A stretch of 64,000 nt of DNA from Clostridia bacterium (lineage in GTDB: Bacteria > Bacillota > Clostridia > TANB77 > CAG-508), in the NCBI GenBank assembly GCA_017470645.1, contig JAFUYJ010000023.1:34767-98766 (forward strand), written 5' to 3'. A program made the translations under genes and the position numbers. The notes under the pieces were generated by a model. It was given only the letters and a program-made list of their open reading frames with translations, was not told the DNA's origin and did no database searches. Numbering within the stretch: position 1 is the stretch's first letter; each line of letters begins with the position of its first letter. Shown piece by piece: positions 51,359 through 57,590 of the stretch.

Positions 51359-52033
51359 ATGGAAGATATTATATGTGTAAAAAATGTTTATAAAAACTTT
51401 GGAACTAAAAAGAATGAAGTTGAAGTATTAAAAGATATTAATATCAACATAAAAAAAGGTGAATTTGTATCTTTAATGGGGCAATCTGGTAGTGGTAAAT
51501 CAACTCTGTTATATTTAATAGGAGGACTTGATAACCCTACAAAAGGAACAATAGAGATTGCGGGAAAAGATATTAGAAAAATGAAAGATAGAGCTAAATC
51601 AAAAATGCGAAGACAAGATATTGGATTTGTTTTCCAATTTTATAACTTAGTACCAAACTTAACAGTTGAGGAAAATATTTTACTACCCGTTGTTATGGAT
51701 GGTAAAGGTAAAGCAAAATATAAAGATGCTTTAGATGAAATTTTAAAAATTGTTGGTCTAGAAGATAAAAGAAAATGCCTACCAAGACAACTATCAGGTG
51801 GTCAACAACAAAGAGTATCAATAGCAAGAGCTGTAATAATGAATCCATCAATCATTTTAGCAGATGAAGCTACAGGAAACTTAGACAGTAAATCTGGAAA
51901 AGATGTTATGGAATTATTCAGCAAAATTAATAAAGAAAAAAATATTACAATTTTACAAGTTACTCACTCACAAGAAATTGCTGATTATGGTCATAGAACA
52001 ATTCATTTAAAAGATGGATGTATTGTAGAATAG
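51359..52033 (+). CDS. ABC transporter ATP-binding protein (MacB/LolD-like)
   Basis: GQSGSGKSTL, FVFQFYNL, LSGGQQQRVSIARA, ILADEATGNLD, VTHS. Confidence 0.92.
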   Translation: MEDIICVKNVYKNFGTKKNEVEVLKDININIKKGEFVSLMGQSGSGKSTLLYLIGGLDNPTKGTIEIAGKDIRKMKDRAKSKMRRQDIGFVFQFYNLVPNLTVEENILLPVVMDGKGKAKYKDALDEILKIVGLEDKRKCLPRQLSGGQQQRVSIARAVIMNPSIILADEATGNLDSKSGKDVMELFSKINKEKNITILQVTHSQEIADYGHRTIHLKDGCIVE

Positions 52034-52045
52034 AGTACAACTTTC

Positions 52046-52128
52046 AAAATCCCCTTTCTTAGAATAATATATGTATATCTATACAAATTTTAGTAGATAA
52101 TATATTTATGTTTAAGAAAGGGGATTTT
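52046..52128 (+). promoter_or_regulatory. Long hairpin whose 3-prime arm contains the ytxC-like Shine-Dalgarno sequence
   Basis: AAAATCCCCTTTCTTA (52046-52061) pairs perfectly with TAAGAAAGGGGATTTT (52113-52128). The loop is 51 nt. T-run, then ATG at 52133. Confidence 0.45.
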
Positions 52129-52132
52129 TTTA

Positions 52133-52978
52133 ATGAAGTCATTTTGTATAAAAAACAATAACAACCTAATTCTTGATTATCTACTAGCAGAATTAAAAAC
52201 AATCAATTTAGAAAACACGTATATATCACAAAAGAAATTTAAGTATTATAAGAACATAATAGTACATTATACAGGCAAAAACGAAAGCGATTTTATATAC
52301 AAGTTGTCCGAAATTCTAACAAGCTGTATAACGAAATTCTACGAAAAAAACATTGTGAAAAGAGTTATTAACTGTGATTTTTTCTATTTTGATTCAAAAG
52401 AAAAGGGAATGATTTATAATAACTGCTTTGAGATTTTACAAGATGAAAATTCAGATGAATTCATTAATCGAAAAGAAAAAATTTTTTCGTGTTTAGTTGA
52501 CTATATTTCAGAAAATAAATATTTTATATTAGATGGCTTTGTTAATTTTAGATTATTTGAATACAATTCTTTAATAGAAGAATGCGTAGATAGCGCAGTT
52601 AATAAATATATAATAGATAAGGAGTATAAAGAATTTATAGAATTATTACGCGGATATATAAATTCTCAAAATAGCAGAACTGGTACAATTCATGTTATAT
52701 ATTCAAACGCAGAGCCAATTTTGTTAGATGAGAAACAAAATATTTTGGTATATGACAATCAATTTGAACATCCGAAGTATTTGTCGGATATAACTTTTTC
52801 GTCAAAGGATTATTGCTTAAATGCTTTGCTTAATTTGCTGCCAAAGAAAATTGTAGTTCATATGCTCACTACAGAAGATGAATTTATTGAGACTTTAAAG
52901 TTGATTTTTGGTAAGAAATTAATGATTTGCAAGGAGTGTAATATTTGTAAAACTTTTACATTGCTTAATGTTCATTAG
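52133..52978 (+). CDS. ytxC: YtxC-like putative sporulation protein
   Basis: LDGFVNFRLFEY...DSAVNKYIIDKEYKEFIELLRGYI resembles the YtxC family core. 281 aa. Confidence 0.5.
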   Translation: MKSFCIKNNNNLILDYLLAELKTINLENTYISQKKFKYYKNIIVHYTGKNESDFIYKLSEILTSCITKFYEKNIVKRVINCDFFYFDSKEKGMIYNNCFEILQDENSDEFINRKEKIFSCLVDYISENKYFILDGFVNFRLFEYNSLIEECVDSAVNKYIIDKEYKEFIELLRGYINSQNSRTGTIHVIYSNAEPILLDEKQNILVYDNQFEHPKYLSDITFSSKDYCLNALLNLLPKKIVVHMLTTEDEFIETLKLIFGKKLMICKECNICKTFTLLNVH

Positions 52979-53099
52979 TAATAAAAACAAATCCCTCATA
53001 TGAAGATATGGGGGATTTGTTGATATATAAAGTTGAAATATAATCAATTTTATGTTAAAATAATTGAAGTATTTATGAAATTTGTAAGGAAGTGAAAGA

Positions 53100-54038
53100 A
53101 TGGTAAATAAAGATAAAAATAGAGATAAGAATGTTGGTGAAGAATTAGATTCAAAAATAAATATAAACTGGTTTCCAGGCCATATGGCAAAAACCAAAAG
53201 ACAAATAATTGAAGATTTAAAGTTAATAGATGTTGTGGTTGAAATTTTAGACGCAAGAATACCAGTATCAAGTCAAAATCCTGATGTTAAAGGATATACT
53301 AAAAATAAGAAAAAGGTGGTAGTTTTAAATAAATCAGATTTGGCTGATGAAAATGAAACAAAAAAATGGGTGAAGTATTTTGCTGAAAAAGGTATTCCTG
53401 CAGTTGTTACTGATGCAAATAGTGGTAAAGGAATAAACGAAGTAATAAGAGCAGTAAAGGAAGTAGCAAAAGAAGCACAAGATAAATTCGCTGGTAAAGG
53501 AAGAGTTGGAAGATCAATTAGAATAATGATTTTAGGAATTCCAAACGTAGGAAAATCATCATTCATAAATAGAATAACAAAGAAAAACTCAGCACAGGTA
53601 GGAAATCGCCCTGGTGTTACAAGACAGAAACAATGGATTAGAATTGAAGATGGAATAGAATTAATGGACACACCAGGTGTATTATGGCCAAAATTTGAAT
53701 CAGAAGAAGTAGGGTTACACTTAGCATTTACAGGTTCTATAAAAGATGATATTTTAGAAAAAACAGAAATTGTATATCAATTATTAAGATTTTTGGTTAA
53801 CAACTATTTAAAGAATGTTATTGAACGATATAAGTTAGACGAAAATCAAGTTGATGAAATATTAAAATCTGATTTAGAAGAAAATGGAAAAATTGTAGAG
53901 ATAATGGAAACTATAGCAAAGAAAAGAGGAGCAATTTTGTCTGGTGGAAGAATTGATTATGAAAAGGTTTCTATTATTTTGCTAGATGAGTTTAGAAGCG
54001 GAAAATTAGGAAAAATTACGATTGAAAAGAGGGATTAG
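53100..54038 (+). CDS. rbgA: Ribosome biogenesis GTPase A (YlqF/RbgA)
   Basis: INWFPGHMAKTKRQI, circularly permuted GTPase (LNKSDL before GIPNVGKSSFIN), DTPGVLWPKF. Confidence 0.88.
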   Translation: MVNKDKNRDKNVGEELDSKININWFPGHMAKTKRQIIEDLKLIDVVVEILDARIPVSSQNPDVKGYTKNKKKVVVLNKSDLADENETKKWVKYFAEKGIPAVVTDANSGKGINEVIRAVKEVAKEAQDKFAGKGRVGRSIRIMILGIPNVGKSSFINRITKKNSAQVGNRPGVTRQKQWIRIEDGIELMDTPGVLWPKFESEEVGLHLAFTGSIKDDILEKTEIVYQLLRFLVNNYLKNVIERYKLDENQVDEILKSDLEENGKIVEIMETIAKKRGAILSGGRIDYEKVSIILLDEFRSGKLGKITIEKRD

Positions 54039-54046
54039 TAATTTAA

Positions 54047-54439
54047 ATGGAATTAATAAATAGAGAAAAAAATGAAATGGATGTAAACATGTTATCACCA
54101 TTAACATGGGCTTATGTTGGTGATGCTATTTATGAATTATACATAAGAACAAATTTAGTGAATAATACTAAATTAAAACCACATAAATTACATATTGAGT
54201 CAATCAAATATGTTAAAGCGAAAGCTCAAGCCGATATTTTAAAGAGGATTGAGACTAGTTTAACGGATGAGGAGAAGGACATAGTAAGAAGAGCGAGAAA
54301 TGCTGAGAATCACCATTTACCTAAAAATGCAGATCCAGCTGATTACATGTATTCAACTGCGTTTGAAGGGTTGATAGGATTTTTATATCTTACTAAAAAA
54401 GATGAAAGATTAAAAGAAATTTTAAAAATGTGCATGTAA
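54047..54439 (+). CDS. mrnC: Mini-ribonuclease 3
   Basis: LTWAYVGDAIYELYIR...RRARNA...YMYSTAFEGLIGFLYL. Confidence 0.8.
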   Translation: MELINREKNEMDVNMLSPLTWAYVGDAIYELYIRTNLVNNTKLKPHKLHIESIKYVKAKAQADILKRIETSLTDEEKDIVRRARNAENHHLPKNADPADYMYSTAFEGLIGFLYLTKKDERLKEILKMCM

Positions 54440-54493
54440 CCATTGACTATTTTGTGTGAAATATGGTATAAATATAAAGTAGCACAAAAATAT

Positions 54494-54568
54494 GGCCCGT
54501 TGGTCAAGCGGTTAAGACGCGGCCCTCTCAAGGCCGAATCATGGGTTCGATTCCCGTACGGGTCACCA
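54494..54568 (+). tRNA. tRNA-Glu (anticodon CUC), CCA encoded
   Basis: GGCCCGTTGGTCAAGCGGTTAAGACGCGGCCCTCTCAAGGCCGAATCATGGGTTCGATTCCCGTACGGGTCACCA. Acceptor GGCCCGT/ACGGGTC. Anticodon stem CGGCC/GGCCG with loop CTCTCAA. T-arm GGGTTCGATTCCC. Close to Bacillus tRNA-Glu. Confidence 0.88.
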
Positions 54569-54572
54569 ATTA

Positions 54573-54612
54573 AAAAAGTATCAATTATACACAAATATAA
54601 TTGATACTTTTT
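54573..54612. terminator. Bidirectional terminator between tRNA-Glu and gpr
   Basis: AAAAAGTATCAATTATA-cacaaa-TATAATTGATACTTTTT. Confidence 0.8.
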
Positions 54613-54617
54613 GTCTT

Positions 54618-55550
54618 TTATACAGCAAAATTAATAGCTTTGGCAACAACATCTTTCATATTTTCAATTAAGTCATCAATTTCTTTAGGAGTGACAATCA
54701 TATTGTATCCGCTAGGGTTTAAACTTTCTTTAATTTCTTCATAATTATCATGTTCTTTTAGGTCATTTAAGTAATTGTTAGATTTAGCTTCATTTTGCAA
54801 TTTTCCAATAAATAAATCAAGACAATCATTTACTAAAACAGCAGATTCAACAACCATGGGTACTCCAATTGCAATAACTGGAATTCCAATTGTGTTTTCA
54901 CTTAGTTCTTCTCTAGCATTTCCAACTCCACCGCCAGGAACTATGCCTGTATCGGAAATTTGTACTGTGCTGCTAATTCTTTCAATACTCTTAGAAGCTA
55001 AGCTATCAATTACTATTAACATTTTAGGTTTTACGTTATCAACAATTCCTTTTATTATTTCGGATGTTTCTATACCGGTTGTACCAAGAACTCCTGGGGC
55101 AATTGCACATACAGATCGAGTTCCTTCAGCTACGTATTGAGGAGTATATTTTATAAAATGTTTGGTTACGTCTATTTCTGAAACAACTTTTGGTCCAAGA
55201 GAATCAGGTGTTACAAATTGATTGCCTAAACCAACTACAAGAATTTCATCGGTGCTGTTACAATGGGTGTTTATTATTTTTTGCAATTCGTCTTTTACTA
55301 CTTCAGATGCTTTATTTATATCATCATCGGTGGCGAGTTTTAAATTCTTTATATCAATTGTGACGTATGTTCCAATGGGTTTGCCAATTGCTTGTTCTCC
55401 TTGTGCATCAGTGATTTTTACGATGTTTGTTTTTATGTTGTTATCTATTATTTTTTCTTCAGTTTCTATACCGAGGATGCTGTTGAGATTGTTAGCTTTT
55501 TGGTAAATGTCGCGCCTTTCGTCGGCCATGTCTGTTCTAAAATTGTACAT
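54618..55550 (-). CDS. gpr: Germination protease (spore SASP endopeptidase GPR)
   Basis: MYNFRTDMADERRD (RTDLA.E motif), GTYVTI, VVGLGNQFVTPDSLGP, IAPGVLGTTGIET, VIDSLA, DTGI.PG.GVGN. Confidence 0.88.
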   Translation of the reverse strand: MYNFRTDMADERRDIYQKANNLNSILGIETEEKIIDNNIKTNIVKITDAQGEQAIGKPIGTYVTIDIKNLKLATDDDINKASEVVKDELQKIINTHCNSTDEILVVGLGNQFVTPDSLGPKVVSEIDVTKHFIKYTPQYVAEGTRSVCAIAPGVLGTTGIETSEIIKGIVDNVKPKMLIVIDSLASKSIERISSTVQISDTGIVPGGGVGNAREELSENTIGIPVIAIGVPMVVESAVLVNDCLDLFIGKLQNEAKSNNYLNDLKEHDNYEEIKESLNPSGYNMIVTPKEIDDLIENMKDVVAKAINFAV

Positions 55551-55576: not shown

Positions 55577-55605
55577 TAGTATTTCTAATTTTTTGGTTTT
55601 TATTC
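55577..55605 (-). promoter_or_regulatory. Forespore-type (sigma-F/sigma-G-like) promoter of gpr
   Basis: On the minus strand: GAATA (55605-55601), 18 nt, aATACTA (55583-55577). Resembles the sigma-G consensus gHATR-N17/18-CATxHTA. B. subtilis gpr is sigma-F/G dependent. Confidence 0.4.
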
Positions 55606-55634
55606 TTGAATTGGTGTTGGTTTTGAAGTTAGCC

Positions 55635-55847
55635 GTACTAAATTACTAAAAGCCAATGAAGACATTACTTTGTGAGTTTCGCCCCAACTACGAACTAAGA
55701 GTAAGAATCTTTCGTGCAAGATTGGGTGTAGTGATTAGAAATGAGTGTCTTTTGCACGAAATTTTCTAACTCTTACTAGCTTGTCGGTCCCCACCTTGAC
55801 TTCACTTCACAAAGTAATGTCTTCATTGGCTTTTAGTAATTTAGTAC
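55635..55847. repeat. 213-bp element with perfect 41-bp terminal inverted repeats and a GC-enriched, partly self-complementary core
   Basis: GTACTAAATTACTAAAAGCCAATGAAGACATTACTTTGTGA (55635-55675) is the exact reverse complement of 55807-55847. Inner pairing AAGAGTAAGAATCTTTCGTGCAA / TTGCACGAAATTTTCTAACTCTT. Between the outer arms and this inner stem sits an unpaired bubble with CGCCCCAAC on the left strand and CGGTCCCCACC on the right. Confidence 0.9.
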
Positions 55848-55899: not shown

Positions 55900-55943
55900 T
55901 TGACTTTTAATTTTAATCAGAGTAAAATAAAAACATAAGTTCG
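55900..55943 (+). promoter_or_regulatory. recN sigma-A promoter followed by a degenerate LexA (Cheo) box
   Basis: TTGACT (55900-55905), 17 nt, TAAAAT (55923-55928). AAAACATAAGTTCG (55930-55943) compared with consensus CGAACRNRYGTTCG. Confidence 0.4.
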
Positions 55944-55961: not shown

Positions 55962-57590
55962 ATGATTAGTACGATGCATATAAAAAATATCGGAATTATT
56001 GAGGATTTAACAGTAGAGTTTAATAATGGATTTAATGTTTTAACTGGTGAAACAGGTGCTGGGAAAACATTGATTATAGATTCACTAGGAATCATTTCAG
56101 GTGATAGATTTTCTAAAGAAATGATAAGAAAGGGAGAGAATCATTCTTTTGTTGAGTTAAATCTATTTTTACCAGAAAATGAAAATTCGGTTGATGGAAG
56201 TGTAGTAGTTTCAAGGGAAATTTATGATAATGGAAGAAACACATGTAAAATAAATGGGAGATTAGTAACTGTAAATGAATTAAAAGAGTTTATGAGCAGT
56301 ATTATAGATATACATGGACAGAACGATAATCAGACTTTAATGAGAAAGCAGGAACATATTAAATATTTAGATAATTTTATAGGAAATGATATTCTAAAGT
56401 TGAAAATAGAGTATTTAGATTTATTTAATAATTACAACTCGATTCAAAAAGAATTAAAGGAAAATTATGGCGATGAGAAAGAAAAACAACGTAAACTTGA
56501 TTTATTAAAATATCAATTAGATGAGATTGAAGAAGCAAATTTGAAAGTAGGGGAAGAAGAAGAACTAGATGAACTACATCAGCTTATGAAAAATTCGGAA
56601 AAAATATATACAAACCTTGAAGAAATACAGGAAAATCTTAGTAATAGTGCAATAGAAGCAATCAATAATTCAATTAGGTGTTTTGAGAAAATAGAAAATT
56701 TAGGGGAGAAATATCAAAATAAATTAACTGAATTAAAAAATGTGTATTATGAGGTTCAAGAATTATCAAGGGATGTTTCTGATATGAATAGTGAATTATT
56801 CTTTGATGAAGAAAAGAGAAATGAGGTAGAAAGTAGATTAGATTTAATATATTCATTAAAAAGAAAATATGGCAATAGTGTTGATGAAATTCTTGAATAT
56901 AAAGAAAAAATAGAGAAGGAAATATTTAATATTGAAAACTGTGAAGAACATAACAATGAGCTAAAAACGAAATTAGATATATTAGACAGCAAAATGTTTA
57001 TAATATGTGAAAAAATGAACAATTTACGCGAAAAAAACAGCAAAAAATTAAGCGAAAATATTAACAAAGAGCTAGTAGATTTAGAAATGCCAAATGCTAA
57101 GTTTTCAGTATATAGCAAATTTAACAGCAACAAGAGTTATACAGAAAACGGATTAAATGAAATTGAATTTTTAATTTCAACAAATGTTGGAGATGATGCT
57201 AAGCCATTAGCTAAAATTGCTTCTGGTGGTGAAATCTCAAGAATTATGCTCGCTATAAAAACTGTTTTAGCTGATTCAGATAAAGTTCCAGTTTTAATAT
57301 TTGATGAAATAGATACAGGAATAAGTGGAAAAGCAGCAAAATCTGTTGGGGAGAAAATAAAAATAATATCAAGAAAACATCAAGTTTTATGCGTAACACA
57401 TCAACCAAGCATAGCTGCAAAAGGTGATTACAACTATTATATCAATAAAAAAGTTAAAAATGGAAAAACAGCTACAGATATAAAATTATTAAATGAACAA
57501 GAAGTTATAAATGAAATTGCAAGAATTTCAAGTGGAGATGTAACTATTACTTCAATAAATCACGCTAAAGAATTAAGAAAAGCTTGCTAA
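55962..57590 (+). CDS. recN: DNA repair protein RecN
   Basis: IKNIGIIEDLTVEFNNGFNVLTGETGAGKTLIIDSL, a long coiled coil, ASGGEISRIMLAIK, LIFDEIDTGISG, CVTHQP. Confidence 0.92.
   Translation: MISTMHIKNIGIIEDLTVEFNNGFNVLTGETGAGKTLIIDSLGIISGDRFSKEMIRKGENHSFVELNLFLPENENSVDGSVVVSREIYDNGRNTCKINGRLVTVNELKEFMSSIIDIHGQNDNQTLMRKQEHIKYLDNFIGNDILKLKIEYLDLFNNYNSIQKELKENYGDEKEKQRKLDLLKYQLDEIEEANLKVGEEEELDELHQLMKNSEKIYTNLEEIQENLSNSAIEAINNSIRCFEKIENLGEKYQNKLTELKNVYYEVQELSRDVSDMNSELFFDEEKRNEVESRLDLIYSLKRKYGNSVDEILEYKEKIEKEIFNIENCEEHNNELKTKLDILDSKMFIICEKMNNLREKNSKKLSENINKELVDLEMPNAKFSVYSKFNSNKSYTENGLNEIEFLISTNVGDDAKPLAKIASGGEISRIMLAIKTVLADSDKVPVLIFDEIDTGISGKAAKSVGEKIKIISRKHQVLCVTHQPSIAAKGDYNYYINKKVKNGKTATDIKLLNEQEVINEIARISSGDVTITSINHAKELRKAC

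Follow-up and report, generated by a model that had tools for sequence, protein, structure and literature searches.

The stretch of DNA analyzed here, referred to as the window, is 64,000 nucleotides long and carries at 55635-55847 a 213-bp element in the spacer between two divergent genes. To its left is gpr (54618-55550, minus strand; Peptidase_A25 by Pfam), and to its right is recN (55962-57590, plus strand). The initial annotation had set the element between the promoters of these two genes, and this placement was borne out, with the recN site recovered by a promoter scan. The gpr promoter, which by the consensus looks to be of the forespore sigma-G/F type, has a -10 that is conserved in outgroups, reading TAGTATT on the plus strand. 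The element is separated from the gpr -35 by 29 nt and from the recN -35 by 52 nt, lying upstream of each and thus outside both transcripts. The features of the spacer are as follows.

55577-55605, minus strand: gpr promoter, GAATA-17-AATACTA, read from the sequence, 29 nt from the element
55635-55675, plus strand: left arm of a perfect 41-bp inverted repeat (repeat search, 100%)
55676-55797, minus strand: conserved 122-nt core, common to a second locus, L070, described below
55682-55688 and 55789-55795: direct motifs CCCCAAC and CCCCACC, respectively, from the sequence
55696-55775: inner imperfect hairpin, 88% complementary here and 83% in L070
55722-55748: 27-nt apical loop, C/A-rich on the minus strand
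55798-55806, minus strand: 9-nt unpaired spacer from the core to the right arm, sequence AGTGAAGTC
55807-55847, plus strand: right arm of the perfect 41-bp inverted repeat (repeat search)
55900-55928, plus strand: recN promoter, TTGACT-17-TAAAAT, from the promoter scan, 52 nt from the element

The two 41-nt arms were found by a repeat search of the window to be 100% complementary and 131 nt apart, and none of 100 shuffles of the window equaled this inverted-repeat match. They enclose a core that reads AAGGTGGGGACC...GTTGGGGCGAAAC on the minus strand and has a G+C content of 42.0%, compared to 37% for the whole element, 27% for the other intergenic DNA, and 28% for the window. Within the core, an inner imperfect stem (55696-55719 paired with 55752-55775; 24 nt, 88% complementary, 32-nt loop) is formed, and the two C-rich motifs are direct rather than inverted repeats. 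The two ends of the element pair with one another rather than each folding into a subterminal hairpin of its own. A six-frame check showed that stops break every reading frame of the element, which contains no transposase gene and is smaller than the approximately 400 bp that is the size limit asked of a MITE. Most of the anatomy given in the initial annotation was confirmed by these measurements: the exact 41/41 arms, a core of about 43% G+C in AT-rich intergenic DNA, the inner imperfect stem, and the two similar direct motifs were each recovered. Its statement that the arm has no second copy in the window agrees with a scan allowing up to 3 mismatches, which located no further arm copies within the 64 kb, and with blastn-short and nhmmer searches, which located no further copies of the element there. 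Likewise, as it had reported, terminator-like sites were not found flanking the element.

Several other observations were made in this region. The gpr promoter -10 reads AATAATA in the strains with the empty allele described below. A weak sigma-70-like site on the minus strand (TCGACA-18-TAGAGT, 9/12; 55878-55849) ends 2 nt outside the right arm, is directed through the element at gpr, and was also found in empty alleles. Between the recN -10 and the ribosome-binding site, at window positions 55930-55943, there is a near match (AAAAC-ATAA-GTTCG) to the Bacillus-type LexA (Cheo) box CGAAC-N4-GTTCG. In addition, the block TAAAAACATAAGTTCGACAAAAGGAGG is invariant even in relatives with 88 to 90% identity, whose other intergenic DNA is unalignable. 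SOS control of recN fits both the LexA-like site and the invariant block. On the other side, the DNA separating a Mini-III RNase gene (54047-54439) from the gpr 3' end contains a tRNA-Glu gene (anticodon CTC; 54494-54568, plus strand). The 90% relatives have a 78-amino-acid ORF called between these two genes in place of the tRNA. The gpr neighbors in the window (51359-55550) and in close relatives encode Mini-III RNase, a GTPase, and YtxC, whereas an FtsX/ABC transporter pair adjoins gpr in the 88% relatives (L012-L017), indicating a synteny break on the 3' side of gpr.

Three alleles at one site

The Gpr protein was used to locate an identical locus on a gut-metagenome scaffold (L001; ENA ERZ28656003). 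The nearest GTDB species representatives, which are uncultured Clostridia from animal and human guts, have a Gpr that is 89% identical. We therefore know that the species is absent from the GTDB representatives. The gpr-recN region was then compared among contigs whose Gpr was 97 to 100% identical to that of the window, and three alleles were found that occupy the identical site. The long allele has a 411-bp spacer and is present in the window, L001, and the partial contig L002. The short allele has a 309-bp spacer and was found on three complete contigs (L004, L022, and L023) and a partial one (L021). The empty allele has a 199-bp spacer, was found on seven contigs (L006-L011 and L020), and reads ...CAGTTAGTGCTAC... 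at the site. The short and empty alleles occur in very closely related strains, since the gpr of L021 (short) and that of L006 (empty) are separated by a single nucleotide in 933 nt. Around the site, the relatives with 88 to 90% identity are unalignable and too divergent to reveal the ancestral state. Alignment of the three alleles defined the following features.

55629-55632, plus strand: left TTAG, from the alignment with empty alleles
55633-55844 (or 55629-55840, given the TTAG ambiguity): 212 bp missing from empty alleles, from the alignment
55689-55795: 107 bp absent from the short allele, with CCCCAAC and CCCCACC at its bounds
55841-55844, plus strand: right TTAG, inside the outer end of the right arm

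The spacer of the empty allele reads ...TTTTGCAG TTAG TGCTACTCTATGG... and has a single TTAG. No obvious target-site duplication had been noted in the initial annotation; the empty alleles instead reveal a 4-bp TTAG repeat that is offset from the arms. This repeat is not flush with the inverted repeat, as a CC lies between its left copy and the left arm and its right copy is within the right arm. The empty allele lacks the CC and retains TGC, the last 3 bases of the short allele's right arm. Its junction fits two readings: DNA may have been inserted at TTAG, or the sequence between two TTAG copies, which lie at the hairpin base, may have been deleted. The short allele lacks 107 bp of the long one and has one additional 5-nt unit (TGAAG), which is next to the arm in the spacer, and its loop within the same arms is 29 nt (GTTTCGCCCCAAC|TTGACTTCACTTCACT). 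The use of SNP trees of gpr and recN to polarize gain and loss was dropped due to the conflicting relationships given by the two genes. Strain distances calculated from gpr conflict with those from the first 1 kb of recN, which indicates that homologous recombination within the species is frequent.

The arms also differ between alleles. At their outer ends, the window has GTAC...GTAC and the short allele GCAC...GTGC, so that both sides have changed and the pair has been kept. One position of the short allele is unpaired (GATATT versus GACATT). A separate observation is that L005 has GAAGACA where L004, of the same Gpr type, has GAAGATA, so that there may be a variant of the short allele whose arms are fully corrected. 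Two Logan unitigs, L002 and L005, stop exactly 30 nt into the arm, as expected where a k = 31 graph meets a perfect inverted repeat that is longer than k. An assembly artefact as the source of the arms was rejected, since independent assemblies from at least 6 samples carry them.

A second copy of the core next to a truncated methyltransferase gene

Copies of the element were sought in several DNA collections. An exact search with a 26-mer of the arm gave 0 matches in 185,579 GTDB species representatives, a set that does not include the species itself, making this result uninformative on copy number in the host. A 22-mer of the arm had two matches in the JGI metagenomes, both due to chance (L018 and L019), and a 20-mer had one chance match in IMG/VR, in coding DNA (L003). 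Searches of IMG/VR with three exact blocks and two gapped patterns of the core gave either 0 matches or unrelated loci (L071 and L072), and blastn of the element against phages and plasmids gave no match. For this species, one copy of the element is present within the 64 kb scanned. Since the DNA scans had found no copy, stop-free peptides from all six frames were searched against a protein collection, on the premise that another copy could have been translated by a gene caller as part of an ORF, and one protein was matched (P0121; E = 6.5e-7). This 220-amino-acid protein has HTH_3 and SAM-methyltransferase domains, and its C-terminal 48 residues correspond to the core translated on the minus strand.

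P0121 is encoded on L070 (ENA ERZ28621736), a single 1,164-bp metagenomic contig of 36% G+C from one sample and from a different Clostridium sp. The core of L070 (762-883) and that of the window are both 122 nt and are identical at 92 of the 95 positions outside the apical loop. The apical loop is 27 nt in both and identical at only 9 of the 27. The core boundaries and any properties of the family rest on these two loci (n = 2). In L070, the core adjoins a truncated HTH-methyltransferase gene. The intact methyltransferase (P0122; 272 amino acids) falls in a protein cluster with 556 members, and for one of these, labelled MAG Clostridium sp., 738 contigs are recorded. The position of the L070 junction within the intact protein is shown by the bar in ...EDYDIVLCSGV|FHFLKPEK.... 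At the DNA level, L070 is identical to the intact locus L073 at 318 of 318 positions up to position 760, after which the core begins, and the junction comes after GGAGT rather than TTAG. Beyond this junction, L070 did not match the 1.3 kb downstream of the corresponding point in L073. The DNA past the core is unrelated and contains the start of an ORF, and the contig ends 280 bp past the arm. This partial ORF was without a match by tblastn, Pfam, or PHROGs, and the right part of L070 had none in phages and plasmids by blastn. A likeness between the DNA downstream in L070 and the recN-side flank of the window (CTACTCTAT...) was rejected when 39 of 300 shuffles scored equally. Relatives of the L070 methyltransferase (P0123-P0128) include several truncated or fused forms: in one, an internal stretch is deleted in frame; another is joined to an aldolase C-terminus; and in a third, the N-terminus is replaced. 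These forms are either metagenome assembly chimeras or the products of a rearrangement hot spot.

The L070 core is also enclosed by an inverted repeat (ATATTGTTTTAT / ATAAAACAATAT), in which the 5' arm and the spacer are native methyltransferase coding DNA. The register of the arms is common to both copies, with the 5' partner 9+k nt upstream and the 3' partner k nt downstream of the core. All positions from k = 1 to 41 are paired in the window, and in L070 all positions from k = 3 to 14 are paired (12 perfect pairs), with a G.T at k = 1. The arm sequences themselves differ between the 41 bp of the window and the 12 to 14 bp of L070. Four of the 12 L070 pairs differ from those of the window on both sides, and all of these differences are transitions. 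The inner stem is less complementary in L070 (83%) than in the window (88%), with changes that break pairs rather than compensate.

The arms of the window were compared to the methyltransferase gene in the same fixed register. Over 30 nt of the minus strand, the window arm plus the 9-nt spacer match the L070 methyltransferase DNA at 20 positions without gaps. For the inner 21 nt of the right arm, 15 matched, a score that among 712,000 background positions is reached at a rate of 4e-5. The arm sequence to be compared with motif-II DNA of methyltransferases is ACTAAATTACTAAAAGCCAATGAAGACATTACTTTGTGAAGTGAAGTC. The window stretch translates as N E D I T L * S E V, where the methyltransferase has D Y D I V L C S G V. 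This likeness (67% over 30 nt) is significant, though short. Because of the 30-nt match and the translation, the arms of the window look like a decayed piece of the methyltransferase gene together with its exact reverse complement, rather than like a terminal repeat bound by a transposase.

A probable foreign insertion that folds, and the alternatives to it

Taken together, these results lead us to conclude that the element is probably a foreign, non-autonomous, hairpin-forming insertion of MITE/foldback-like type that is decaying by deletion and has no detectable role in the expression of gpr or recN. A foreign origin is indicated by the 42% G+C of the core in a genome of 28% and by the recurrence of the core in L070. 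Both filled and empty sites, the mark of past mobility, are represented among the three alleles, and the core also occurs at a second locus. The element would have inserted into neutral spacer DNA that separates the divergent promoters of gpr and recN, in one lineage of an uncultured species of gut Clostridia, and it would have arrived already carrying a fragment of its earlier neighborhood. Its arms would be a decayed fragment of the HTH-methyltransferase gene from the core's earlier locus and a reverse-complement copy of that fragment. The position between two divergent promoters would account for its being tolerated, and the same tendency to form a hairpin would account for its instability.

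The complementarity of the arms has most likely been kept through copying at the level of DNA. Template switching copies nearby DNA as its reverse complement and restores pairing in existing stems (PMC8794818), and template-switch mutations that create and repair stems are described in PMC8604942 and PMC7202029. Replication template switching of this type (quasi-palindrome correction), rather than selection on an RNA, would maintain the arms. The perfect arms, the paired changes, and the reverse-complement 3' arm in L070 are all as expected from this process. The initial annotation had proposed, from arms that are more perfect than the interior, that they are homogenized at the DNA level, and the paired changes between alleles support this proposal. 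The element resembles known template-switch mutations in having reverse-complement copies of adjacent DNA, arms that are perfect though diverged from their source, changes on both sides between alleles, and a mismatch left uncorrected in one allele. It differs from them in two respects. Template-switch events are usually short, whereas the stem here is 41 bp around a conserved, foreign 122-nt core, and the element has an equal register at two unrelated loci. Template switching on a pre-existing stem explains this shared register only loosely. An apical loop with a constant length and composition but an unrelated sequence also hints at a constraint that is outside this explanation.

Palindromes are unstable and undergo hairpin-stimulated deletion between short direct repeats, examples of which are Tn10/Tn5 excision and the SbcCD-sensitive palindromes. 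The endpoints of the deletions found here are short direct repeats that adjoin hairpins, in agreement with such instability. The short allele would have arisen by one deletion between the CCCCAAC and CCCCACC repeats, and this loss of 107 bp between 7-bp repeats beside the inner hairpin resembles excision of the Tn10/Tn5 type. The empty allele is consistent with a deletion between the TTAG copies at the base of the outer hairpin and probably arose in this manner; otherwise, TTAG would be the original insertion junction. It departs from Tn10/Tn5-type excision in that loss and gain could both have produced it. References on SbcCD are listed in PMC7999016.

Two alternatives are unlikely, to a similar extent. 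The first is a classical MITE: the element would derive by deletion from an insertion sequence, its 41-bp terminal repeats would be bound by a transposase acting in trans, and TTAG would be its target duplication. Bacterial MITEs are small, are non-coding, and have long inverted ends that form a long hairpin (PMC3184786), and the element shares each of these features. It is further like the MITE/foldback elements (Correia, RUP, and ERIC-like; PMC3184786) in being an approximately 200-bp, intergenic, non-coding, single long hairpin that is present or absent according to strain and has a short direct repeat at its junction. The presence/absence polymorphism and the 4-bp repeat are what a MITE would display. 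Elements of the IS5 group duplicate YTAR. Against a classical MITE, the TTAG repeat is offset from the arms, with CC on the left and an inside-arm position on the right. Moreover, the arms are not conserved between the two copies, those of L070 being unrelated to those of the window and one of them being native gene sequence, so that no terminal repeats common to the copies of a family were found. Neither the expected multi-copy family nor a parent insertion sequence was found: further copies did not turn up in the window, the GTDB representatives, the JGI metagenomes, IMG/VR, phages, or plasmids, and searches of these databases gave no matching ends. In addition, no transposase was found within about 10 kb, as the 17 ORFs covering 44.1 to 63.3 kb encode housekeeping families only by Pfam and include no recombinase or transposase. 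The MITE-like insertion suggested in the initial annotation, which comes nearest among its three hypotheses, is therefore upheld in part. The indel between strains and the presence of the core at an unrelated locus favor it, and the unconserved arms and the offset TTAG do not. A palindromic element derived from IS200/IS605 (PATE) was also considered and rejected, because the ends of the element pair mutually and the L070 junction comes after GGAGT and not TTAG; taken alone, the TTAG preceding the insert would fit insertion at a fixed tetranucleotide.

The second is that the core and its register-fixed arms are the attachment module of an undescribed integrative element of gut Firmicutes, one that recombines as a hairpin, targets the HTH-methyltransferase gene, and has a stem that copies or mimics the DNA adjoining its point of insertion, in one case a conserved motif of that gene. 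The window would then carry an orphan mini-derivative at a secondary site, with TTAG as the crossover, and we regard the whole of this proposal as no less doubtful than the classical MITE. A precedent is provided by phage CTX, which has a folded, single-stranded attP according to PMC3442271 and PMC3089051. As in the CTX attP, L070 has inverted arms approximately 100 nt apart, a stem that equals target DNA (its 12 perfect pairs involve native target sequence), and cargo after the 3' arm. Its order of target, spacer, core, target-complementary arm, and unrelated DNA with a new ORF is the one that integration of a folded single strand should leave at one of its junctions, and both the equal register of the two copies and the resemblance of the window arms to the methyltransferase gene would be accounted for. 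In the window, only the outer 7 bp coincide with flanking DNA, and the TTAG is far from the junction position in L070. No recombinase, dif-like site, or second junction was seen, the L070 contig ending 280 bp after the arm, and the ORF after this arm has no family match. A perfect stem of 41 bp also far exceeds the needs of a recombinase site. Compared to CTX and other Xer-dependent elements, the element has no dif-like sequence, link to Xer, or filamentous-phage genes and gives no sign of a single-stranded form, and its target is a methyltransferase gene in a Firmicute host.

It is very unlikely that the element encodes a structured noncoding RNA, transcribed from the minus-strand site at 55878-55849 through the element to gpr. 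The fold of the whole element as single-stranded RNA or DNA is strong compared to shuffles (z of -10 to -12), the arms have paired changes, two small hairpins on the plus strand display loops of CCCCAAC and CCCCACC, and the weak promoter-like site (9/12) ends just outside the right arm. However, the 131-nt interior alone has z values of only -1.4 and -2.1 on the two strands and the L070 core a value of about 0, near the level of shuffles, and the stability of the whole element therefore comes almost entirely from its arms. Rfam provided no match at any threshold: with Rfam 15 at the gathering threshold, only a tRNA was found in the whole window, and at E values up to 10, the region, the core, and the L070 copy had chance-level matches only. 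There is no terminator or internal promoter, the changes in the L070 inner stem break pairs, sister strains dispense with the element, and paired changes arise by DNA template switching as well (PMC8794818). Given these Rfam results, the lack of promoter and terminator, and a position outside the flanking transcripts, the long-hairpin RNA envisaged in the initial annotation was set aside. Retron, attC, group II intron, IS110 bridge-RNA, and IS605 identities were dropped on anatomy, because there is no nearby reverse transcriptase or recombinase gene, the C-rich motifs are repeated directly and not inverted, and the expected end motifs are missing.

The least credible of the readings is that of an inverton, in which a site-specific recombinase acting on the 41-bp repeats would invert the 131-bp core and thereby switch gpr or recN expression: inverted repeats do surround a short segment between two divergent genes, and invertons are common in gut bacteria (PMC11892184), but all assembled copies (the window, L001, and the short alleles L004, L022, L023, and L021) have one orientation, the promoter scan found no sigma-70-like site within 55676-55806, the gpr and recN promoters are both outside the element, no recombinase lies within about 10 kb (a distant one might still act in trans), some strains are without the element or without 107 bp of its interior, the loop of the short allele is only 29 nt, and the interior is itself a hairpin. 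The invertible switch raised in the initial annotation thus found no support in the orientation of the assembled copies, core promoter, or recombinase, and the nearby recombinase that it had suggested looking for was absent from the ORFs surveyed.

Implications

If the attachment-module proposal were true, the sequence of the arms would record the element's previous target, and the window copy would be a mini-derivative without cargo. With the foreign, hairpin-forming insertion that we favor, the comparison of strains allows an insertion to be seen at three stages of decay. It also indicates that a long inverted repeat found in a promoter region, even a perfect one, is not necessarily a switch and that inverton finders starting from inverted repeats can be misled by such palindromes, which break k = 31 assemblies 30 nt into the arm. 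The natural correction of one arm by the other bears on the reading of covariation as evidence of RNA structure. Finally, the occurrence of the same core at two unrelated loci with locus-specific arms could point to a mechanism of insertion beyond ordinary terminal-repeat transposition.
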